Shown here piece after piece: positions 82 through 16,441 of a DNA stretch of 29,434 nucleotides. The stretch's first letter is position 1, and each line of letters opens with the position of its first letter. The translations under genes were made by a program, and so were the position numbers. The notes under the pieces were generated by a model that was given only the letters and a program-made list of their open reading frames with translations, made no database searches and was not told where the DNA came from. The stretch is from a virus: UHGV virus genome UHGV-0114363; one strand, given 5' to 3'.

Positions 82-447
82 TTATTTGTCCAAGATTCTA
101 TCCATAATATTTCTTAGTTCTTGTCTGGTTGATTCTATTTTAGCAAGCAACGTTTTGATCAATGAGGGTGAAAAATCAACTGTGCGTGGATCGTTAGCTA
201 ACCACAGTTTAAGTAACCCACCAAGTCGACCAAGATCAGCATTTACTCGGCTAAGCTCTACAACCTGTTCAATATCTACAATAGACTCAACCTGATAACC
301 CATTGCTACTTTACGAATGAAGCTCGCTACACTTAAGCCAGATGCTTCTGCATTTTCCTGGATTTGCGCTTTTTCATCTGGCAAACAATAAACTTTAATT
401 GGTGTACTATTTTTTCTAGTCTGAGAAACGGTCATATCATTCTCCAT
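82..447 (-). CDS. NikA/MobC-like ribbon-helix-helix relaxosome accessory (mobilization) protein
   Basis: 121-aa ORF; segment KVYCLPDEKAQIQENAEASGLSVASFIRKVAMG...LGRLGGLLK resembles the RHH core of plasmid NikA/MobC-type oriT-binding proteins (recollection of R64 NikA pattern). A GAGGTG Shine-Dalgarno at the extreme left edge (minus sense) suggests the next gene, plausibly a relaxase, starts just off-window. Confidence 0.5.
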   Translation of the reverse strand: MENDMTVSQTRKNSTPIKVYCLPDEKAQIQENAEASGLSVASFIRKVAMGYQVESIVDIEQVVELSRVNADLGRLGGLLKLWLANDPRTVDFSPSLIKTLLAKIESTRQELRNIMDRILDK

Positions 448-2499: not shown

Positions 2500-4989
2500 T
2501 TAATGTTCAATATCTATTTGATTATCAATTTGAATAATGTTTTGAATCTCACTGTAAATATCAATGTTCTCATCTGGTACATCTATGCTAACCAATAAAC
2601 TATATTTAACATTGTTAATATAGCGATCCTGCGCAGTACGATATTTCCACCATCCACCAACAGGATAGACAGCGATAGTATTCATCTCTGTTAAATCTGC
2701 AGCACTGCCTTTCCAAGCATCTGAGTGTAATGAACCTCTAACTCTGAGTTGAGGCCCCAGAAACCATCCTGACGCATCTCCTTCAGGTCCATTGTATTCT
2801 TCATTATTCGCATTACGGTTTATCGAAGCACGGAAATTTTCAAGGGTCTGATTAGGTCTAATAACTGCAAATCTCAATCCATGAGATTGATACGAATATT
2901 GTCGTCTGAATCCTTTTTGACTTGGATTAGGTTCAATAAAATACGACAATGTGATTCTTAAAATAACATTTGTTTCTGGTGGTAGTAAGCGAAGAGCTTC
3001 TACGGGCCAAGGGAGTGAAAACAGATGCATTTCATTCAATGTAGGATCAGTAGAACCATCTCTTTTAAATGGGGTGATTTCCGACTGAGATATTAATGTA
3101 AGTGCATTTTCCGCACTATGCATTGCTCGATTTAAATTAGGTACTCCATAACCAACCATCCTTAATAAGCTTTCTTTAGCCGATTTTGGTGTCCCCTGTG
3201 CACGTTCTGTTCTATATCGTTCGTGCATACGACTAGTCCATCTTGCTGTATGAACAAGTAATCCCCTAATAGTTTCAGGCCAATATTCTGGGTACTGAGC
3301 CATTAGCATAGCAGCATGTTTTGATACTAGAGCACAGGCTGCGCTAGTATCTGAATTAACTTCAAACAATTGATTTGTTGCCCTGCCAGAGGTTGTGAGC
3401 AAAGATAATTCAATTGTATTTGTGATTTCATCACGGCTAGGTGATATAAGTTTGTTTCCGCCTTCCTCTACTAAATCTGGCTTATATGGGGCATGCTTTT
3501 TCCATCCCCAGGATACCGATGACCGAGATGACGGTGCAATATCTTCTGACATAGCGAAAGGAGACCAACCATCATATTCGCGGTCTGTATGGGTTGTTTT
3601 ATCAGTATACGCCCCTACAGTTAATGCATTCCAAGATTGAGCAGGATCTTCAATTTCAGCAAGAGTCACTGAATCCCAATAATCTAATTCTAAATTTGTA
3701 GGTTGAGAGTTACCCGCAGAAATTATAAATAATCTGCGGATATCATCCTCTAAACCAAAACTAAACTTGTCAATCTCTGCAGACCATGAGGACGGTTGGC
3801 CTCCAAGAGTATTAGGCTCTGCTGTCACAGCAAGCGAATAAACTCTGCGCCAGTTCGGGTTTTCCAGCTCCAGACGACTTGACGTTCCTGTAGTAATAGC
3901 TCCATAAAGATTAGGATCATTAGTAGCTCTTGGAGGTAGTATCCTTCCTGATTCGATATTGTACGGAATCGAAATGTCCTGATCGTTCAATAAAACAGAC
4001 AGGAAATCTCCATAAACACATAGTCCTGCTTGTCTGGAACCGTGGTCATTATAAGGCCTTTGATTATAATCATCGAAAAGTGGCCAAGATATGTCCCAAG
4101 CAGCTGCCAGTGATGAGTTAGTAAATCTAGATAATAGTGGATTATTGTAGTTAACACCTGTATCTAATATACAAACAGAAACATCAGCTTCATTGTTACG
4201 CGTAATTCTTGCAGCAACATTTTCTGCCCACTGATGCTGTTCTGTAGGTAAGGAATTAACTATAACTGATATATCATCCCTCGCTGATCTTATCTCTTTT
4301 AAATTAGATATTAATTCAGGACAAACTTTTAATCTCGATAGACTCGTACGGATAAGAACAACAGTAGTATCGAAAAAATTAATAGAAGTATTCCCGAGCC
4401 TTCCATTAATTCTTTCGCATAAACGCCGAGCAATATTTAGCACATCCTCCTTATTACCCTTAAGCCAAAGCTCAAACCACTTTTCAACACCGTGATCATC
4501 CGGAATAAGATCTTTTTTATCTGTCCAGAAAGAAGTTATATCTGCTAACTCGATATTTTGTATGCTATCAATTAACAAATGATTTCTAGGGAACTCGATA
4601 CCATCCTTCGATGGATTCAAATAGTCATTTATTTTTTTAGTGAATTTAGTTCTGTCATTTTCATTAATGTATATAATCGCAGTTTCACGATTATTTGATT
4701 TAACTAAAGAACAAAGCTTGAAATAAGTATTATCGATTTTATCTATAGGAAGATCGCATTGTTCAAAACTGATTAGCCTAACATAAATCCCTTTTTCATC
4801 AGTAACAGGGGGAAGCCTCGGTCTTTCATCATAATGATTCAATATACGGCTATACTGATTTAGTAATGATATACCATGTACCGCTCGATCACGAGCTGGG
4901 ACTTGGGGACTACGACCATTGCTCCTAGAGCGATAGTTTTCGGGGGAAACATAGCCGTTTAATAAAATATGCCTCTTGTTGGTAGTCAT
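2500..4989 (-). CDS. Subtilisin-like serine peptidase (S8 family), 829 aa, with extra N- and C-terminal domains
   Basis: Catalytic residues in canonical subtilase order: Asp in VCILDTGVN (about residue 276), His in YNDHGSRQ (316), oxyanion Asn in FIISAGNSQ (427), Ser in NSDTSAACALV (549); ALTVGAYT motif present. AGGGA Shine-Dalgarno overlaps the 3' end of the upstream ATPase gene (8-nt gap). Confidence 0.8.
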   Translation of the reverse strand: MTTNKRHILLNGYVSPENYRSRSNGRSPQVPARDRAVHGISLLNQYSRILNHYDERPRLPPVTDEKGIYVRLISFEQCDLPIDKIDNTYFKLCSLVKSNNRETAIIYINENDRTKFTKKINDYLNPSKDGIEFPRNHLLIDSIQNIELADITSFWTDKKDLIPDDHGVEKWFELWLKGNKEDVLNIARRLCERINGRLGNTSINFFDTTVVLIRTSLSRLKVCPELISNLKEIRSARDDISVIVNSLPTEQHQWAENVAARITRNNEADVSVCILDTGVNYNNPLLSRFTNSSLAAAWDISWPLFDDYNQRPYNDHGSRQAGLCVYGDFLSVLLNDQDISIPYNIESGRILPPRATNDPNLYGAITTGTSSRLELENPNWRRVYSLAVTAEPNTLGGQPSSWSAEIDKFSFGLEDDIRRLFIISAGNSQPTNLELDYWDSVTLAEIEDPAQSWNALTVGAYTDKTTHTDREYDGWSPFAMSEDIAPSSRSSVSWGWKKHAPYKPDLVEEGGNKLISPSRDEITNTIELSLLTTSGRATNQLFEVNSDTSAACALVSKHAAMLMAQYPEYWPETIRGLLVHTARWTSRMHERYRTERAQGTPKSAKESLLRMVGYGVPNLNRAMHSAENALTLISQSEITPFKRDGSTDPTLNEMHLFSLPWPVEALRLLPPETNVILRITLSYFIEPNPSQKGFRRQYSYQSHGLRFAVIRPNQTLENFRASINRNANNEEYNGPEGDASGWFLGPQLRVRGSLHSDAWKGSAADLTEMNTIAVYPVGGWWKYRTAQDRYINNVKYSLLVSIDVPDENIDIYSEIQNIIQIDNQIDIEH

Positions 4990-4997
4990 TTCATCCC

Positions 4998-5984
4998 TTA
5001 TTGTCTACTTTCTTGCCTACGCTTTATAGCCTTTACTAACAAATCGGTTGTAATATTGTTTGCATTATAAAGCACTGATTCTTTGGCAGCATCTTCACTT
5101 GCTCGCGTGATCTCCGCTGCACTTAGACCTGAAGCACTATCAATGATCTCACTCCAAAATAAATTACCGAGGTCAAAGACAGCGAGTCTCTGTTCAATAA
5201 GATTCCTGATTAGATTATCCTCAGGCCTTGTGAACGGTATAATATCGTCAAATCGTCTATATAAGGCGCGATCTAAAAGCTCTGGATGATTGGTTGCAGC
5301 TAAAACTATGCTCTCAGAATCATCCTGCTCTACAAACATTAAAAAAGAATTTAAGACCCTACGAATTTCTCCAACGTCATTCTGAGCGCCACGCTGAGTT
5401 CCTATAGCATCGAACTCGTCAAAAAAATATACAGCTCTTGTTTGCCGTATGTGGTCAAAAATTAAACGCAGCTTAGCTGCAGTTTCACCCATATAGCGAG
5501 TGATTAGATTATCTAAGACGACTGTATAAAGTGGTAGCTTTAACTCTGTAGCAATGACTGATGCGGACATTGTCTTACCAGTACCGGGAGGACCAGTGAA
5601 AAGAATTTTTCTTCTTGGAATAAGCCCAAACTCAGAAAGTTTATCTTTCTGTTTTTGTTCAAGCAGAACCTGATTCAATCTTTCCCTAACGCTTCCAGAA
5701 ATCACCAGATCTTGAAGATGTACTGGCTTGTTCGTTTGCTCAAGTAACCCCTTAAGATCACCATCAGGCTGCTTAACAAATGGTGTAAGTCGTTTTTCAA
5801 CTAAACCTACAGAACTCGTTGTTTTCTGATTTTTATCAACTAAGTTTTTTATATCATTAGCAAGCTTATGATGACCTTGCCTTGCTTCCTTAGCTGCCAC
5901 CTGCAAAGCAATAGAAAAGAAACGCTGATCATCACGATCAACGTGGCTTTTCAATAAAGCTTTGATCTGCTCTGCAGTAGCCAT
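4998..5984 (-). CDS. AAA+ ATPase (classical AAA clade), 328 aa
   Basis: Walker A GPPGTGKT (131-138), Walker B VYFFDEFD (about 186-192), sensor-1 LAATNHPELLD (about 229-238) and RRFD (243-246); roughly 100-aa helical N-terminal region; first gene of a two-gene operon with the S8 peptidase. Confidence 0.85.
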   Translation of the reverse strand: MATAEQIKALLKSHVDRDDQRFFSIALQVAAKEARQGHHKLANDIKNLVDKNQKTTSSVGLVEKRLTPFVKQPDGDLKGLLEQTNKPVHLQDLVISGSVRERLNQVLLEQKQKDKLSEFGLIPRRKILFTGPPGTGKTMSASVIATELKLPLYTVVLDNLITRYMGETAAKLRLIFDHIRQTRAVYFFDEFDAIGTQRGAQNDVGEIRRVLNSFLMFVEQDDSESIVLAATNHPELLDRALYRRFDDIIPFTRPEDNLIRNLIEQRLAVFDLGNLFWSEIIDSASGLSAAEITRASEDAAKESVLYNANNITTDLLVKAIKRRQESRQ

Positions 5985-6448
5985 AACCCCTCATACTCCC
6001 TTGTTCTCTTGTTGCAAAGTTTACTATAAATTCATTTAGTTCGACATCGTTACCTACCTGCTCATTACAGGAAAGTAATACCTTCATGAGCGTATCATCA
6101 ATGATCAAAGTGTAATCAAACACCTAGGCATAGTACCTTCACTACGTGAACTGTATCACTCATTGTTATGTAACCTGAGTGTCCCTTTCTGGCACTTAGC
6201 TCTATCGGATAATGTATTTAAGCTGTTAATTTATAAGATTTTTCATCACTAAACTGTCTTTCATGCAACGCATCGATAAGGTCAACACATTACGTTTATA
6301 AGGAAGTAGTTTGTTTAGCGTAATGATGCAAATGCTGACCAATTAGCTTTGCCACAATTTTGCCACACCTACAACGCGCAAAATTGCACATTAGTGTTGA
6401 ACAAAGCAAAATACTGCAATAGTAACTTGATGATTTTACGAGAAAAGA

Positions 6449-10313: not shown

Positions 10314-10316
10314 AAA

Positions 10317-10415
10317 TCACCACCAGCGTATAGCGCTAATAACGCTTGACAGACCGAATAAAAAGAACACGGCCCAGATGAGGAAGAATTTCCAGTTGGG
10401 TAGTTTTTCGCCCAT
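10317..10415 (-). CDS. Putative 32-aa single-pass membrane peptide (MGEKLPNWKFFLIWAVFFLFGLSSVISAIRWW)
   Basis: Hand-translated small ORF absent from the supplied track (below size cutoff); GGGAG Shine-Dalgarno 9 nt upstream; stop lies 3 nt before the gpW-like ATG; strongly hydrophobic core. Confidence 0.3.
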   Translation of the reverse strand: MGEKLPNWKFFLIWAVFFLFGLSSVISAIRWW

Positions 10416-10490
10416 GACTCGCAACTCCCGTATCAGTTTGCTAAAATTAATCACATATTCTCCCTTGCTATCCTCAAGGTGCAGAAAGTA

Positions 10491-10525
10491 AAAAGCCCCG
10501 AAGTGTTAGCGCACCCGGGGCTTTT
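10491..10525. terminator. Hairpin with 10-bp stem (AAAAGCCCCG / CGGGGCTTTT) and 15-nt loop, T/A-flanked; possible intrinsic terminator
   Basis: Located just downstream (minus sense) of the gpV-like stop; flanking A/T runs on both sides; large loop lowers confidence. Confidence 0.4.
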
Positions 10526-10541
10526 GTCTGTTTGGTAGTTT

Positions 10542-11282
10542 TTAATTAGGCGCGGTAGTATTCCCGCTGCCATTCTGCACACCGCCATGGGTATGCTGGA
10601 TGAGGCTCTTACCTCCAGCCTTCACATCGTTAGTCACCGTCACCGGCCCAAGCATCGTCGCAGTACCGCCACTTTCGCCCATTCCCTGAGACAGATTGCC
10701 ATTAATCGTTACGTTGCCGTTCAGCGTGATAGTCGGGGATGTGATTGTCGTTCCACCTTCAGCCGTAGCCGTGAGCTGGCCCGGTGTTTGAACGGTGATG
10801 TTATGTCCTGCGGCAACCTCTACGAACGCCGCACCATCATCGGTTCGCAGCTGCGCGGCGCTGGTACTGATACCGCTGATTTTCTGTGCTTGCGACTGCG
10901 GGCCAACGATGGCGAACGCATCAGATAAGTCATGCTGTCGCGGATCGATGGTCTCCTGAACGCCGCCGCTCTGCCACCAGAAATCGATGCAACGGTCGGC
11001 AAAGAGCAGCAGGCACTCGTCGCCTTCTTTAACCGGAAAAGTCAGCGTACAACCGCCGCCACGCGGGAAGATAACCGGCACATCCACCAGCGGTTTTAAT
11101 TCGGTGGAGCCATCGCCAACGATACCGCGAAGCGCTACCTCTACCGTGCAGGTAACAGTATCAGGATCGAACGACTGAATGATGCCGGGCATCGCTACGC
11201 GCATCTGGGTAGACACCGAATCGGCAATGGCCTGCGCGGTCTGCTGCTCGCCGCCGATCTGTGATTGAGTTGGAATTGGCAT
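10542..11282 (-). CDS. Baseplate assembly protein V (spike)
   Basis: N-terminal MPIPTQSQIGGEQQTAQAIADSV... and C-terminal LIQHTHGGVQNGSGNTTAPN match the gpV/Mu gp45-type spike pattern; Gly/Thr-rich beta-helix-like C-terminal half. Confidence 0.75.
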   Translation of the reverse strand: MPIPTQSQIGGEQQTAQAIADSVSTQMRVAMPGIIQSFDPDTVTCTVEVALRGIVGDGSTELKPLVDVPVIFPRGGGCTLTFPVKEGDECLLLFADRCIDFWWQSGGVQETIDPRQHDLSDAFAIVGPQSQAQKISGISTSAAQLRTDDGAAFVEVAAGHNITVQTPGQLTATAEGGTTITSPTITLNGNVTINGNLSQGMGESGGTATMLGPVTVTNDVKAGGKSLIQHTHGGVQNGSGNTTAPN

Positions 11283-11292
11283 AAAAACCCCA

Positions 11293-11323
11293 TAAAAAAA
11301 CCCGCCGAAGCGGGTTTATTTTG
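11293..11323. terminator. Bidirectional rho-independent terminator (AAACCCGC-CGAA-GCGGGTTT with A-run and T-run flanks)
   Basis: Perfect 8-bp GC-rich stem, 4-nt loop, 8 A upstream and TTTATTTT downstream; lies between the moron gene stop (11334) and the gpV start (11282). Confidence 0.7.
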
Positions 11324-11333
11324 AATCTTTGAT

Positions 11334-11966
11334 TTAGTGTAGCTGCTCGGTACTTATCACAAGCAGACGATGGGAATGGCAATCTCTATCATTACCCCAA
11401 CAGAAGTTGGCCCAAGTGCCGTAGAAATCATCCCATGAAGTCATGAAAGTCAGTGGGCGTTCTTCCTGTGTACCGTCAGATACATAAACGTGATAACCCT
11501 CAGTCTGAATTGCCCAAGCAATCATTCGTTCCCAGAATCGGCGACCATCTAAAGTCTGCTCACTATCGGAAACCACGATGGAGTAGCTACTCAGGAAGAA
11601 TTTGAAAAATTCTTGCGGCAGTCCACGGACAGCTGTATCAAACTGAGGTTGAACAGTTTTCCAGACAAGAATCTGAGTACAAATTTTCCGGGTAGGAACA
11701 ATGTGCTCAAGGAAATCGAGTTTTACTGCATACACAGTTTCAGGCACGCCAGAGTCAGTAACCAGACGATACTGATTGCCTTTTACAGCCTGGAGCAAGC
11801 GGTAGCCATGAGGAGTAACAAACCCAGGCAAAGCAAACTCTTTCACACCAGCGCGGATGAACGCTTCGGTATGCTCGATGTTTTTCTCTGTCATGTTCAG
11901 CTTTGCGTCGAAGCTAGCTGATGGGATCTCATATGGCATTTTATGGTTCGCTCGGTAAGTTCTCAT
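11334..11966 (-). CDS. Hypothetical protein, moron gene embedded in the tail operon (210 aa from MRTYRANHK)
   Basis: Long ORF with GGAGGT Shine-Dalgarno 4 nt upstream of the ATG at 11966; lower GC than flanking tail genes by eye; followed by its own intrinsic terminator; no recognisable family. Confidence 0.6.
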   Translation of the reverse strand: MRTYRANHKMPYEIPSASFDAKLNMTEKNIEHTEAFIRAGVKEFALPGFVTPHGYRLLQAVKGNQYRLVTDSGVPETVYAVKLDFLEHIVPTRKICTQILVWKTVQPQFDTAVRGLPQEFFKFFLSSYSIVVSDSEQTLDGRRFWERMIAWAIQTEGYHVYVSDGTQEERPLTFMTSWDDFYGTWANFCWGNDRDCHSHRLLVISTEQLH

Positions 11967-12090
11967 AGTGACCTCCATGCTTTGCTGGAGCACTTCTTAC
12001 AGGTTAGGCAAATATTAGTATCGTAATACAGTTTAATACCATCCTTCATAGATGGGCAAGGTTAATCTATGTTGGCTTGTATTAGAGGGG

Positions 12091-12441
12091 TTACTTAACT
12101 TTCACACAGTCGTAAGTTGCGTATTGACGCGGCGCATTCATGCTGGCTTGCAGCCACTGAGCGTTGAGAATGGCCTTGCCGTTGCGCTTGATGTACTCAA
12201 GACCAACCCAACGACCGGGTTGATTAGTAGCCATGCGCCATTCCATCTTAATGTTCTCGTAGTCTTCTTTTTGCTTAAGGAACGTTACCTTCTGAGTTTC
12301 AGGCTTCGCACCGTTAATGCGTGCCCATCCATCATTTGCCGGGCTGGTGCCCAAGTGGAAAGGCCCACACTGGGAATCAGCATGAGCTACGCCCGCTAGG
12401 GCAAAAGAGCTACAAGCAATCATCAGGATGAGTTTTTTCAT
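12091..12441 (-). CDS. Small secreted/periplasmic protein with N-terminal signal peptide (moron gene)
   Basis: MKKLILMIACSSFALAGVAHA followed by a mature domain with two Cys (possible disulfide); start at 12441 preferred because it begins 4 nt after the upstream tail gene stop; no recognisable family. Confidence 0.6.
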   Translation of the reverse strand: MKKLILMIACSSFALAGVAHADSQCGPFHLGTSPANDGWARINGAKPETQKVTFLKQKEDYENIKMEWRMATNQPGRWVGLEYIKRNGKAILNAQWLQASMNAPRQYATYDCVKVK

Positions 12442-12445
12442 TTTC

Positions 12446-13507
12446 TTAAAACGTCCGGTTAAGTGATGCGTTACTCTGCAAATCGCGGCTGCCACGCGCA
12501 AAGCACATCAAATCCATGTACCACGCCTGACCTCTGGTGTCGCCAGTATAGTCGATAGCTTTGACGATATAAACGCCATCTGTCGCAATGCTGGCAGCCT
12601 GTGACGTTGTGCCGGTCAGAACGCGGTTGCCGTTCTCTTCTGTTTCGGTGATACGCCCGGGCGACTGAGCGATTTCGCTATTGCCGAGTGCGGCGCGGTA
12701 CACCGAAGCCTGATCGAGCTGGATAAGACCATTGATGCGAATGTTGGGGTTTATCAGGCACCGCACGTTTACGCCGCCGCCCATCGTCTGTTGCGGCATA
12801 CCGATCAGGCCAGTATCAGCATTCAACACAATGGCTTCGTGAATATATTTATCCTCCGGCACCATCTGGACCTGACCATCCACCAGTTGCCATGTCGCTT
12901 TGCACTGCGCAGCAATATTATCCATCACGTTGCGGCTGGATGAGTAAATCGCGCGGCCACGAGGAAACACGGTATCAGGAAAATCGCCGGTAATGCCCTG
13001 TGTCACGCCGAACGCGTTGAAATCCTGCATCGTCGCCCGGTGCAGATCCGCAACGGTATAGCCAGCGGCAAGCGTGGTGATGGTAGTCGCGTAGAGGAAC
13101 GCTTCGTGGTTACTGATGGCCTGAATCAGCACCCAGGAATCCGTAATGTTGTCCTTCCCGGTGACGGTGAAGCGAATATCACCGTCAAATATCAGGCCGT
13201 AGTTCTGACCGTTCACCTGCCCTATCTGGTCTGGTGAAATCTCCCGGGACACACCAACCTGGCTCGCATCAACATCCGGCGCTATACCGTCATACCCGGC
13301 AATGATGCGAATTTTGGCAAACTCCTGCCCAAGTATCTTGTTCGTGGTATCGGTCGAAAGGTTGTAAATTTTCACGTTCGCCACGCGTGGCCAGCGTGTG
13401 TCTGCCCACTCGATCTGGAACGTAACCTTAAAGTCAGACAGGGAAACGCCCTGCCCGTTCTGGTCCAACAGTTGCAGCTCAAAATGGCGCATCCAGTTAA
13501 GAGACAT
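12446..13507 (-). CDS. Tail/baseplate hub protein (phage tail protein, gpD/Mu P-like position)
   Basis: 353-aa protein in conserved position between tape-measure-proximal small tail genes and the spike gene; tight coupling with neighbours. Confidence 0.55.
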   Translation of the reverse strand: MSLNWMRHFELQLLDQNGQGVSLSDFKVTFQIEWADTRWPRVANVKIYNLSTDTTNKILGQEFAKIRIIAGYDGIAPDVDASQVGVSREISPDQIGQVNGQNYGLIFDGDIRFTVTGKDNITDSWVLIQAISNHEAFLYATTITTLAAGYTVADLHRATMQDFNAFGVTQGITGDFPDTVFPRGRAIYSSSRNVMDNIAAQCKATWQLVDGQVQMVPEDKYIHEAIVLNADTGLIGMPQQTMGGGVNVRCLINPNIRINGLIQLDQASVYRAALGNSEIAQSPGRITETEENGNRVLTGTTSQAASIATDGVYIVKAIDYTGDTRGQAWYMDLMCFARGSRDLQSNASLNRTF

Positions 13508-13509
13508 TT

Positions 13510-13815
13510 CTACTCCTGTACGAAAATGAGGTGGCTGTATGTGCCGAGATTGGTTTTGGTGGGCTCGTCCGGTGCGCCCACATCGCAGCCTACGAGCAGC
13601 GCCCCGTTAATACCTAGTTGAGGATATTGCTCAAGAAGATTTACACCGGTTACCAGCGGCACGCCAGAAAGAAGCGGTTCGCCACTGCTATCTTGTACAT
13701 CCAGAATCCAGCCAGCAGAATCACGCCAAATGACTCTCAGCGTGTATGTTGTCTCTGCTAACTGAATGCGAAATAGCTGGTTATCCGGCGATAAAGGGAT
13801 TTCAGTTACATTCAT
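13510..13815 (-). CDS. Small tail/baseplate protein (101 aa)
   Basis: Conserved position; ATGA-type overlap with upstream gene. Confidence 0.45.
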   Translation of the reverse strand: MNVTEIPLSPDNQLFRIQLAETTYTLRVIWRDSAGWILDVQDSSGEPLLSGVPLVTGVNLLEQYPQLGINGALLVGCDVGAPDEPTKTNLGTYSHLIFVQE

Positions 13816-14438
13816 TGGATACCTATAGAGTTACCAAGACTGGTTCCTTTTAGTCCATCAAACCACCCTGTTGACTTAATTACCGATTCATTTACTGGGG
13901 TGGTGGATTTAGTCCCGGAATTCTGCACCGCAGATGTACTAACCCCGTCCTGCATATCGGATTTATCAGCAACGGTGACATTTTTTGTATGCGTTATGAT
14001 GACTTCACGCAGGGTAAGCGTGCAGTTCAGCACGTTCTCGCTGGTTTTATCGGTCGTCACTTCTATGGCGCGCACCAGCATATTGGTGTACACCCTCTTT
14101 CCGGTCACCACATCGAACGGCACGCGCTCAAGCTGCATATCCAGCAGCTTTTGGTATGTCTCCTTAGGGCTAAGCCCAGCGCTAAGACCGATTGAAGATG
14201 TATCAATGAAGTCCAGCAACGAACCGCCACCAGCGAAGCCGCATTCCATTGTGACTTCGCTGGGGCGCTTATACGCATGATCGGCGATGAAGCCCGAAGC
14301 GCTATTCGTTGTTGGCTTCTCCACCGGGTGCTCAGTAATTTCGAGCGCATCAGAATGCTTTTCGGAGACGACCACGCTGGGAATTAATATGCCAACTCGC
14401 CGGGATTGCTGGCGAAAAATAGCGGAGAGAATATCCAT
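13812..14438 (-). CDS. Tail protein following the tape measure (208 aa)
   Basis: Start overlaps the tape measure stop; conserved synteny. Confidence 0.45.
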   Translation of the reverse strand: MDILSAIFRQQSRRVGILIPSVVVSEKHSDALEITEHPVEKPTTNSASGFIADHAYKRPSEVTMECGFAGGGSLLDFIDTSSIGLSAGLSPKETYQKLLDMQLERVPFDVVTGKRVYTNMLVRAIEVTTDKTSENVLNCTLTLREVIITHTKNVTVADKSDMQDGVSTSAVQNSGTKSTTPVNESVIKSTGWFDGLKGTSLGNSIGIQ

Positions 14439-16441
14439 TAGCTCGGCACCGTTCGAAGTTGTTGAGTTAGTTGTGAATTAACGTTCTTCTGCCGCTCAAC
14501 TGTGATATTGGCAGCCTCACGTGGATCAGATACACCGTGAATATTAATAACCGTTTCTTGCTGTATGTTTTGTGAAGCACCGCCACCAGCGGCCATACGA
14601 ACCAATTCACTTGGGTAAGGGTTTCTCCCGTTCTCATGATGGATAATTCCATTCATCAGAGAGGACATTACCTGCGGATCTTTAAGGTTGAGAATGGCAT
14701 CAGGAGCCACACCCATCATTTTCGATAACTGAGCAATGTAAGCACCGGTATTATTTTCATTCCCCGGTGCCCACGTAGAGATTATATCGTTAAGGGTTTG
14801 CAGCGGCTTGCCTGTCGTCTTACCTTCAAAGTAGCGCATTAATTGTCGGGAAAGCGCTTTCAGGCCATCATAGGCAGTTTCAAACCGGGCGAACCTGCCG
14901 CCAGGCCTTTCGAGCGTCGCCCCAGATTGCCCACGAAAGTCGATATTACCGGGGTTATTATTTCTAATACCTCGTGGAGCTTTAGCAGACTGGGCATGTT
15001 GGTCAGGCTCATCATCACCGAACCAGCCGCGCACCGTTCGGCCCACGCTGCGAGGATCGAATCCCCAGTGCTCTTTAATCCAGTCGGCGGTACCGTTGGC
15101 GCTATCTGTTACCATCGGCATCGCTGACGGATTTTCGCTGCCCTGATTTAGCAGCTGTTTGCCTATACTAGCGGCCTGCGCCCAGTTGCCATCTTTTATG
15201 GCATTCAGCAAATCAGCGATCATGTTCAGCATCTTGCCGAACTCACCCATTTGCGAAATGAAGTTGCTAAAATCCCACTTTAGGGACCATGACTTGGGGT
15301 CAATACCGAGCAACTTAGCCAGCGCTTTTGTCAGGTCCGTAACAGTCTTTTTCAGGTCACCAATCATTTTGACGGCCTGATCAATTTCAGTCTTCCATTT
15401 CCCCCAGTCAATCAGGCTTTTGCCACCTTCTTTCCACGTCTGGTAATCATCCAAGAGCAGACCAAGTGCAATAATAAGCGTCGTTATCATGCCCAAGGGT
15501 GATGACATGAAAGCGGTATTTAGCAGCCGCCATGCAACCAACAGCCCACTGAACAATGCGATAAGCTGCTGCGTGGCTGGGTTCAGCTTTTTGAACCAGG
15601 CGATCACACCCTCAACAGCTTGCCCAGTTCGCCATAACACGCGGGTAATCGCGTCACCTGCCCAGAGAATTCCTTTGATGATCTTCGTGATGACCGCTTC
15701 AATCTTCGGCCAGTTGTCGAGTATCTGCCTGCGGAAGTTATCAATACTGCCAGCAAGGCCACCAGCTAGGTTAGAGCCAATCTTGTCTTTCGCCTGTCCA
15801 AGCGTCATCGTCAGATTACGCATGGAGGTCATGAAAATATTGGACTGTTTAGCCGCTGACTCAGCATTAAAACCAATACGCTTTGCCGTCAACGCGTACT
15901 CAGAACTGAGCTGCCCCATCCCTCTGCGCATCGCCATCAGCGTGTTTTCATCGATGCCGAGCATCTGCGCGTATTGTTTCGCGCGGTAATACGGCATGTT
16001 GTTGAGCTTTTGCCCAACGCCAGTAAAGATGGCCGCAGTATCACGCATCTTTCCGCTGGCATCGCGAGTCTGGACGCCCAGGCGGTTCAGGAAGCCTTCC
16101 GCGCCCGGATTGCTACGCATGAAACCGGCCAGCCCTTCAAGAGAGGACATGGCCGACTCGGCGCTGGCACCGGTTTGCGATGCGGCATAGCCCAGCGCTT
16201 TGATGCCCTGGACGCTGGCCCCCGTCCGCTGGGATGCCCAGTAAATTTTATCCAGACCATTCGCGATCTGGGTGGTAAATCCGACAATGCTAAGCGCTGA
16301 GCCTTTCACCACCGCGCCGACCTTCAGAACGTTAGCTGTAACGCCTTTCAGCACGGCTTCAAACTTATTAGCGCCAGCCTGATCGATATCGAATCCCAGC
16401 GAAACAAGGAAATCTTTAATCGTATCTGCGTTACCGCTCAT
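14438..16441 (-). CDS. Tail tape measure protein with C-terminal peptidoglycan hydrolase-like region
   Basis: 667 aa, Ala/Gly/Met-rich helical N-terminal part, central hydrophobic segment, C-terminal RGIRNNNPGNIDFRG...GIIHHENGRNPY region; located after the chaperone frameshift region. Confidence 0.8.
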   Translation of the reverse strand: MSGNADTIKDFLVSLGFDIDQAGANKFEAVLKGVTANVLKVGAVVKGSALSIVGFTTQIANGLDKIYWASQRTGASVQGIKALGYAASQTGASAESAMSSLEGLAGFMRSNPGAEGFLNRLGVQTRDASGKMRDTAAIFTGVGQKLNNMPYYRAKQYAQMLGIDENTLMAMRRGMGQLSSEYALTAKRIGFNAESAAKQSNIFMTSMRNLTMTLGQAKDKIGSNLAGGLAGSIDNFRRQILDNWPKIEAVITKIIKGILWAGDAITRVLWRTGQAVEGVIAWFKKLNPATQQLIALFSGLLVAWRLLNTAFMSSPLGMITTLIIALGLLLDDYQTWKEGGKSLIDWGKWKTEIDQAVKMIGDLKKTVTDLTKALAKLLGIDPKSWSLKWDFSNFISQMGEFGKMLNMIADLLNAIKDGNWAQAASIGKQLLNQGSENPSAMPMVTDSANGTADWIKEHWGFDPRSVGRTVRGWFGDDEPDQHAQSAKAPRGIRNNNPGNIDFRGQSGATLERPGGRFARFETAYDGLKALSRQLMRYFEGKTTGKPLQTLNDIISTWAPGNENNTGAYIAQLSKMMGVAPDAILNLKDPQVMSSLMNGIIHHENGRNPYPSELVRMAAGGGASQNIQQETVINIHGVSDPREAANITVERQKNVNSQLTQQLRTVPS

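Follow-up and report, generated by a model that had tools for sequence, protein, structure and literature searches.

Morons, as defined by Juhala and Hendrix, are carried by temperate phages; examples are lom and bor of phage lambda and gp15 of HK97, which lies beside the tape-measure gene. Superinfection-exclusion proteins that act at the cell envelope include Llp of T5, Cor of phi80, T1 and N15, Spackle of T4, gp15 of HK97, and Ltp of TP-J34. The phage-borne defence hotspot is an established notion from P2 and P4 (PMC9122126, PMC13586616). We analysed the virus genome UHGV-0114363, a stretch of 29,434 nucleotides (nt) here called the window, in which lies a temperate myovirus prophage of Enterobacterales. 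Its minus strand holds, from 12441 to 11334, two open reading frames (ORFs) between a hub-like gene and a gpV spike gene of the baseplate operon. They encode a protein of 116 amino acids (aa), s116, and one of 210 aa, p210. A preliminary description of the window had placed the two ORFs exactly and had read them as an accessory pair, a two-gene moron with its own terminator. Comparison with relatives makes it fairly probable that the interval consists of three separate components: a fixed slot for an exported protein, filled here by s116, a slot for variable cargo, and p210 as the cargo. Both ORFs are real genes, with full-length matches to PHROG families and many homologues. The features of the interval are as follows.

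12446-13507, minus strand: baseplate hub gene (353 aa), the left anchor, part of the phage backbone; matches phrog_196 'baseplate hub' (E = 6.7e-84) and, weakly, PF22759 (E217_GP41)
12091-12441, minus strand: s116, gene of the predicted exported protein (116 aa, phrog_3443), conserved in the lineage
12379-12441, minus strand: predicted signal peptide of s116, residues 1-21, cleavage AHA↓DS, with conserved A21 and D22
11967-12090, minus strand: intergenic leader of p210, 124 base pairs (bp), with a Shine-Dalgarno sequence and a weak promoter-like site
11334-11966, minus strand: p210, variable cargo gene (210 aa, phrog_1349)
11291-11317, minus strand: intrinsic-terminator hairpin of the backbone with its T-run (stem-loop 11298-11317), 16 nt upstream of the spike ATG
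10542-11282, minus strand: gpV-type membrane-puncturing spike gene (246 aa), the right anchor; matches the spike N-terminal domain family PF18352 (E = 2.8e-41) and the GpV Apex motif PF18946

Positions 11200-12600 were compared by megablast with 5,426 complete Escherichia coli genomes, and the flanks were found in 42. Only one of the 42, E. coli O19:H7 730V1, carried the complete interval (99.7% identity); in the remaining ones the flanks enclosed other genes, for example those of Phd/Doc, of a DUF4236 protein, or of further hypothetical proteins. Related loci were fetched by the hub protein, 33 from GTDB genomes and 80 from among the 359 matching IMG/VR stretches, and 108 of the loci collected in this way have both hub and spike. 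The GTDB loci span Escherichia, Shimwellia, Pantoea, Enterobacter, Rahnella, Serratia, Yersinia, Erwinia, Kosakonia, Klebsiella, Hafnia, and other genera.

The 108 loci display more than 40 distinct architectures, with hub-to-spike gaps of 400 to 2,600 bp. The slot is bordered on the left by the hub and the exported-protein gene, and on the right by the terminator and the spike gene. The cargo of the relatives includes PD-Lambda-1 (E = 4.8e-83), PDC-S42 (E = 1.7e-36), a membrane protein with an Mrr-like nuclease domain (E = 1e-19; PDC-S02), Phd/Doc, an EACC1-like protein on the opposite strand, a DUF4236 protein (22 loci), and several further small secreted proteins. Conserved flanks around diverse cargo, with known defence systems among that cargo, are the marks of a defence hotspot, and gene content across the relatives shows the slot between the exported-protein gene and the terminator to be a cargo hotspot. 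Like the hotspots of P2 and P4, it is a fixed site between core genes with diverse, swappable cargo that includes known defence systems. It differs from them in belonging to a lineage with an E217-gp41-type hub and a DUF3383 sheath, in its position within the baseplate operon between hub and spike, and in its borders, which are an exported-protein gene and a conserved terminator. In the literature we found only the work on P2 and P4 and no account of a hub-spike hotspot. The slot with p210 adds one more case to a known class, that of phage cargo hotspots with an uncharacterised moron in them. The lineage, widespread among enterobacteria and represented by 359 hub-positive IMG/VR stretches and 33 genome loci, thereby gains a defined cargo site, whose simple anchors make it minable for new defence or conflict genes, as the P2 and P4 hotspots were.

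One two-gene cargo recurs in the slot. It combines a protein of 250-273 aa, drawn from the unrelated clusters C16, C43, and C104, with a protein of 123-165 aa from cluster C11, which matches HEPN_IX weakly (E = 0.003). Such pairs occupy the slot in loci L098, L099, L047, L037, L020, L115, L014, L024, and L114. To judge by this arrangement, they look like an uncharacterised two-gene system of the HEPN type with exchangeable partners.

The right border of the slot is a hairpin at 11298-11317, with a GC-rich stem of 8 bp and T-runs on both strands. A GC-rich hairpin with a T-run lies within 60 nt before the spike ATG in nearly all of the loci, independently of the cargo and also where s116 is the only gene present. 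Perfect stems with a T-run were found in 102 of the 108 loci as against 0 of 2,160 shuffled sequences, and the other six loci have imperfect versions. In 76 loci, 16 nt separate the stem from the spike ATG. Its sequence varies with the pairing kept: ACCCGC/GCGGGT in 68 loci, ACCAGC/GCTGGT in 23, AGCCGC/GCGGCT in 9, and CCTCGC/GCGAGG in 1. Because the hairpin is independent of cargo and its stem changes are compensatory, it is, on this comparative evidence, an element of the phage backbone that forms the right border of the cargo slot. The preliminary description was right to see a bidirectional terminator here, with T-runs on both strands, but not to assign it to the insert, since essentially all 108 relatives have it. 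Rfam gave sub-threshold matches only, driven by the terminator.

Within these borders p210 is the only true moron, a rare cargo gene of low G+C content (GC). It occupies the slot in only 2 of the 108 loci (L002 and L048) and, as noted above, in 1 of 42 E. coli genomes, and is in this sense absent from close relatives. Its GC of 44-46% deviates from the 52-58% of the flanking genes, whereas s116, with 50-52%, resembles the flanks; the lower GC once ascribed to both genes is a property of p210 only. A variable accessory gene in the baseplate operon does exist, and it is p210 alone, since more than 100 loci have s116 without p210; the accessory pair with its own terminator is not borne out. Like the morons of lambdoid phages, p210 is a single extra gene in a late structural operon, with deviant GC, its own leader, and a terminator after it. 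It resembles them further in being absent from near-identical relatives and in having homologues in the slot after the spanin genes, which bor occupies in lambda. It is unlike classic morons in that its best promoter match is only 8/12 and its terminator is a backbone element common to all cargo. The s116 gene does not fit the moron definition. The distinction between the two genes keeps a conserved exported protein from being wrongly classed as a moron along with the mobile cargo gene.

The p210 protein matches phrog_1349, 'unknown function', over its full length (E = 4e-104). No match was found in Pfam, NCBIfam, or PADLOC (the last at E ≤ 1), in agreement with the earlier remark that the protein has no recognisable motifs, and the protein accessions and PHROG identifiers of s116 and p210 were not found in the literature. 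A first search returned 68 homologues from Enterobacterales only, labelled 'hypothetical' or 'phage protein', and an exhaustive HMMER search, run over 1.84 billion representative proteins, returned 859 clusters at E ≤ 1e-3. The family clusters (50% identity) are mostly single-domain proteins of about 200 aa, and the distant members that were scanned all fall in phrog_1349. A few members are fusions, to the N-terminal domain of the MqsA antitoxin (E = 3.4e-20), to a weak SRA-like domain, or to DUF5397.

Homologues of p210 are scattered over many contexts. In siphovirus prophages of Serratia the gene has the tail chaperone on one side and the tape measure on the other, with P22-type Ant and Arc genes close by. 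A Pectobacterium prophage of the same myovirus type as ours has it elsewhere, in the slot that separates tube/chaperone from tape measure, and next to Ant/KilA-N. In lambdoid phages, including Escherichia phage LLS, it stands between the spanin and terminase genes, the interval in which lambda has bor. Further copies were found beside Bro-N and AntA upstream of a tailspike gene on an E. coli contig, beside a PemK toxin gene in a type III secretion system island of Pantoea, alone between a phosphotransferase-system operon and hda in a Photorhabdus chromosome, and, without s116, in podovirus-like prophages. Only 3 of 50,697 deposited phage records contain close homologues; one is the lambdoid phage LLS and the other two are unannotated. 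In most copies examined, a leader of 120-440 bp and a weak promoter-like site, as a rule 60-110 nt ahead of the ATG, precede the gene, and a hairpin terminator follows it. The scattered contexts, the own leader and terminator, and the near-absence from deposited phages form the signature of an autonomous, mobile single gene associated with lysogeny, as far as genomic context can indicate.

Positions conserved in at least 90% of 99 diverse family members are N29, Y79, W102, D134, W145, and I204, and the motif V-V-S-D-x-x-Q-T-x-x-G-x-x-F-W lies at a strand-loop-helix junction. The modelled protein is predicted to be a cytoplasmic α/β protein with a weakly GNAT-like core. The GNAT fold has the order β1-α1-α2-β2-β3-β4-α3-β5-α4-β6, with motif A, Q/R-x-x-G-x-G/A, in the β4-α3 loop. 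The loop of p210, S133-D-S-E-Q-T-L-D-G141-R-R, is conserved and is not a canonical motif A. No link to the GNAT family could be made by sequence: no Acetyltransf match was obtained with p210, 99 family members, or the fusion proteins, nor any in the PDB, and hhalign against a neighbouring GNAT gave a probability of 0.2%. Profiles of p210 and s116 gave only chance-level matches in the PDB, such as nanobodies and ribosomal L20.

A strong Shine-Dalgarno sequence for p210, recognised early on, was confirmed as GGAGG at 11976-11972, 5 nt before the ATG. The best promoter-like site of the leader, which is short in the window, is TTGCCC-18-TAAACT, an 8/12 match with the -35 element at 12059-12054 and the -10 element at 12035-12030. 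The moron promoter that had been expected in the 11967-12090 gap thus comes down to this weak site at 12059-12030, which is below the threshold. About 35 nt before the p210 ATG are conserved in the distant copies of Serratia siphovirus prophages (L118-L120, at about 5975-6000). Here a leader hairpin, CTCCA at 11990-11986 with TGGAG at 11977-11973 (CTCCR...TGGAG), can sequester the Shine-Dalgarno sequence, and translational control by this hairpin is a possibility; its folding is no better than that of shuffled sequences (z = -1.45 to +0.09).

We propose that p210 would be expressed from the prophage and act in the cytoplasm, without need of a partner gene, in conflicts between phages or between phage and host. 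The invariant loop of the form β-strand-SD-x-x-QT-x-x-G-helix might bind a cofactor or substrate of the nucleotide type. The hairpin before the spike gene would insulate cargo transcription in the lysogen from the downstream tail genes, and would be read through in late transcription, probably by antitermination. That p210 is such a lysogen-expressed cytoplasmic conflict factor is a tentative proposal and, on balance, a doubtful one. Belonging to a large family without known function, p210 is a good candidate for phage-challenge screens.

A different reading has p210 serving the phage itself, in anti-defence or host takeover (for example as a modifying enzyme like the GNAT anti-CRISPR AcrVA5) or as a regulator linked to antirepressors, and not as a factor of lysogenic conversion or defence. 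The predicted GNAT-like core is consistent with this, as are the fusions to the MqsA N-terminal and SRA-like domains, the contexts, at least five, in which the gene adjoins P22-type Ant, KilA-N/ANT, Bro-N, or AntA genes, and its place in late operons that are transcribed during lytic growth. Anti-defence genes, however, are typically early, whereas the copies of p210 are found in late or tail regions and have a leader and terminator of their own. Copies in chromosomes outside prophages, the rarity of close homologues among deposited phages, and the lack of an antirepressor gene nearby in the window also argue against a service to the phage, which we regard as fairly unlikely.

In contrast to p210, s116 is fixed in the lineage. 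Its gene starts 4 nt past the hub stop codon, and a homologue lies directly 3' of the hub in 104 of the 108 loci, even where hub identity falls to 50%. Where the hub-to-spike gap is only 400-430 bp (L009, L034, L111, and L113), s116 is the sole gene in it. With s116 as the starting point, 79 new IMG/VR loci were obtained, many of them on contigs shared with the hub-derived set, and a hub homologue was present within 100 nt upstream in 79 of 79. Deposited phages, among them Citrobacter phage Omnitron, Klebsiella phage Mulock, ST340-VIM1phi10.1, and Escherichia phage vB_EcoM-683R1, have s116 homologues of 32-65% identity at the same position after the hub, those of isolated phages, including Klebsiella and Escherichia phages, being given as 32-50%; that of ST340-VIM1phi10.1 is annotated as 'putative exported protein'. 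The 104 of 108 loci, the loci with s116 alone, and the deposited phages identify s116, by its synteny, as a backbone gene and therefore not an insertion, and its inclusion in the inserted segment had to be given up. Absence from close relatives, which marks a moron, is the opposite of what is seen for s116. Because it abuts the hub and leaves no room for a promoter, s116 is probably co-transcribed with the late tail genes.

The N-terminus of s116 reads MKKLILMIACSSFALAGVAHA, followed across the predicted cleavage site by DSQC. Among 43 homologues the hydrophobic N-terminus is variable in sequence, whereas the A-x-A↓D cleavage motif is nearly invariant, A21 and D22 being conserved in at least 90%, and the cysteines of the mature chain, C25 and C112, are invariant. 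The signal-peptide protein with two cysteines that the preliminary description had noted is thereby upheld, and export of s116 as a substrate of signal peptidase I is predicted from these residues. Modelling predicts a periplasmic β-barrel of eight strands closed by a C25-C112 disulphide. Over its full length s116 matches phrog_3443, 'unknown function' (E = 5e-45), and it has no match in Pfam, NCBIfam, or PADLOC. In a fold search of BFVD no hit reached E ≤ 0.001; the top-ranking one, a 'lipoprotein' of Serratia phage Scapp, is not mentioned in the genome paper of that phage.

The position after the hub is a fixed exported-protein slot, which is filled in essentially every relative. A crude heuristic scored the ORF next after the hub as positive for a signal peptide in 106 of the 108 loci, 90 being of the signal peptidase I type and 16 having a lipobox; in one of the two exceptions the locus is masked by Ns, and in the other the N-terminus is damaged. 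About 15 relatives, including L008, L020, L046, L057, L070, and L115, have in place of s116 a protein of 288-299 aa, encoded about 43-940 nt past the hub stop codon, whose C-terminal 95 residues are the s116 barrel domain and whose N-terminal domain of about 185 aa is unrelated to s116. Most of these have a lipobox (LLSGC, LVTGC), as in one of 296 aa that joins it to a C-terminal barrel, and a few have G for the lipobox Cys. Other relatives fill the slot with lipoproteins of 240 or 379 aa that lack the barrel and share parts of the domains of the 288-299-aa proteins, or with unrelated small secreted proteins. None of the 288-299-aa, 240-aa, and 379-aa proteins has a Pfam match. Their shared parts point to domain shuffling among the exported proteins of the slot. 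That an exported protein is so strictly tied to the hub raises the question why a whole lineage sends a protein of its baseplate operon to the periplasm.

The s116 protein is the most divergent of the module, with a mean pairwise identity of 0.64 versus 0.83 for the hub. Among pairs whose hubs are at least 94% identical, s116 identity averages 0.73 and drops to a minimum of 0.53. The ratio of nonsynonymous to synonymous substitution rates (dN/dS) is 0.16-0.18 for s116, about 0.11 for the hub, and 0.05-0.12 for neighbouring genes, and the median dS is 0.98 for s116 versus 0.24 for the hub. The gene evolves under purifying selection and its synonymous divergence is deep; positive selection was rejected on the low dN/dS together with the very high dS. 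The same two values point to old alleles exchanged between near-identical backbones as the source of s116 diversity, and in this respect s116 appears to behave like an allele of the specificity or immunity type.

How s116 might act can be pictured as follows. Synthesised together with the tail proteins, it would leave the cytoplasm and close its barrel by oxidation. In the envelope it would serve as an exclusion or entry-blocking factor against related tails penetrating the infected or lysogenic cell; alternatively, the benefit could be that progeny are not wasted on cell debris. Swappable alleles, lipoprotein variants, and non-homologous exported replacements seem to fit a role in immunity or specificity and not a structural one. 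We regard an envelope exclusion or entry-blocking function as possible, with the odds lying somewhat against it. Like Llp, Cor, Spackle, HK97 gp15, and Ltp, s116 is small, predicted to be exported, and encoded among tail genes, its domain is lipid-anchored in some relatives, and it is highly diverse between otherwise near-identical phages. Unlike them, it has neither a sequence or fold relationship to these proteins nor co-variation with a receptor-binding or penetration protein, and unlike most exclusion proteins it is a fixed syntenic feature of a whole lineage. The fuller proposal of two undescribed functional classes side by side, in which the s116 slot provides a lineage-wide periplasmic exclusion or immunity function with swappable specificity alleles, guarding the route of the contractile tail tip, and p210 would be the first member to be recognised of a very large GNAT-like family of single-gene anti-phage or conflict effectors that move between the accessory slots of unrelated prophages, is unlikely.

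Several results weigh against these roles. For s116, no fold or sequence match to known exclusion proteins or lysozyme inhibitors was found. Its alleles do not co-vary with the tape measure (r = 0.086), the spike (r = 0.097), or the tail fibre (Mantel r = -0.003, p = 0.49, a weak test, since many fibres are cut by locus ends). They co-vary only with the adjacent hub (r = 0.55), and this may be linkage alone. For p210, no promoter above the threshold of a consensus scan, and no convincing sigma-70 promoter, was present in the 11967-12090 gap, and the sharing of a hotspot with defence genes is no proof of a defence role. Co-variation of s116 with wedge proteins was not found either. The obligatory exported-protein gene coupled to the hub and the large uncharacterised p210 family both merit follow-up.

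As a periplasmic inhibitor of peptidoglycan hydrolases, in the manner of lysozyme inhibitors or T4 Spackle, s116 could instead neutralise the tape-measure transglycosylase of incoming related phages, or shield the cell wall while its own phage goes through the cycle. The tape-measure proteins of relatives are indeed annotated with a lytic transglycosylase (SLT) domain, but the lack of co-variation with the tape measure given above makes an inhibitor quite improbable.

A role for s116 in tail or baseplate morphogenesis, or as a minor virion component, would mean that its hydrophobic N-terminus is not a cleaved signal peptide. Strict synteny, the near-overlap with the hub gene, and the co-variation with the hub alone would suit this, and in Pseudomonas phage E217 gp42 likewise lies between the hub gp41 and the tip gp43. 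The E217 gp42 protein (177 aa; L216, 7595-8128) was considered as an analogue and rejected, as it has no signal peptide and is not similar to s116; the paper on the cryo-electron microscopy structure of the E217 virion makes no mention of it (PMC10329688). The A-x-A↓D motif conserved behind a variable hydrophobic core, the invariant cysteine pair, the same domain on lipobox lipoproteins, the non-homologous secreted proteins and lipoproteins that fill the slot elsewhere, and a divergence far above that of any structural neighbour all argue against a structural s116, which we hold to be very improbable. An exported, disulphide-bonded s116 is unlikely to be part of the virion. The preliminary description had set universal presence as a virion component in related phages against its own reading; for s116, the presence of the gene is borne out and the virion component is not.

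That s116 and p210 form one horizontally acquired two-gene module, working together and bringing its own terminator, is scarcely credible: the genes are adjacent, on the same strand, and both unannotated, and the pair recurs in L002 and L048, but more than 100 loci have s116 and no p210, homologues of p210 are met apart from s116 in at least seven other contexts, the GC of the two genes differs, the terminator belongs to the backbone, and the two were not inherited as a unit, because the L048 copy of p210 is 93% identical to that of the window and its s116 only 69%.

The tail module around the interval comprises a DUF3383 sheath, a Dit-like protein, a Pam3-gp18-like plug, an E217-gp41-like hub, the gpV spike, and a gpJ/DUF2612 wedge. 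Transcription runs on the minus strand throughout, in the order tape measure, Dit-like, plug, hub, s116, gap, p210, hairpin, and spike, and downstream of the spike gene follow gpW, gpJ, DUF2612, the fibre, and a fibre-assembly protein. The genes upstream of the hub are the following.

14438-16441, minus strand: tape-measure protein gene, annotated in relatives with a lytic transglycosylase (SLT) domain
13812-14438, minus strand: Dit-like protein gene
13510-13815, minus strand: Pam3-gp18-like plug gene

A plus-strand ORF of 115 aa at 12052-12399, antisense to s116, was rejected as a gene; similar ORFs opposite s116 appear in 77 loci, only as a by-product of the conservation of s116. On the other side of the spike gene, a segment of 228 bp (10314-10541) separates it from gpW. 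An ORF within this segment (10317-10454, minus strand) encodes a hydrophobic peptide of 45 aa, MINFSKLIRELRVMGEKLPNWKFFLIWAVFFLFGLSSVISAIRWW. The segment is missing from E. coli 730V1, where spike and gpW abut, and occurs in only seven related loci, those with the spike C-terminus of the window. It is perhaps another variable insertion, a tiny one with a gene for a membrane peptide.

Two further observations concern the outer parts of the window. Beyond the tail-fibre end, at 2500-5984 on the minus strand, lies a gene pair for an AAA ATPase (328 aa, PF00004, with a weak nSTAND3 match) and a subtilase (829 aa, Peptidase_S8), the position of which is taken by an integrase in E. coli 730V1; the pair might form a module of the defence type where the prophage ends. 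A gene for a NikA-like mobilisation protein (82-447, minus strand; PF21983, E = 4.7e-24), situated at the window's left end, suggests that a different mobile element adjoins the prophage.

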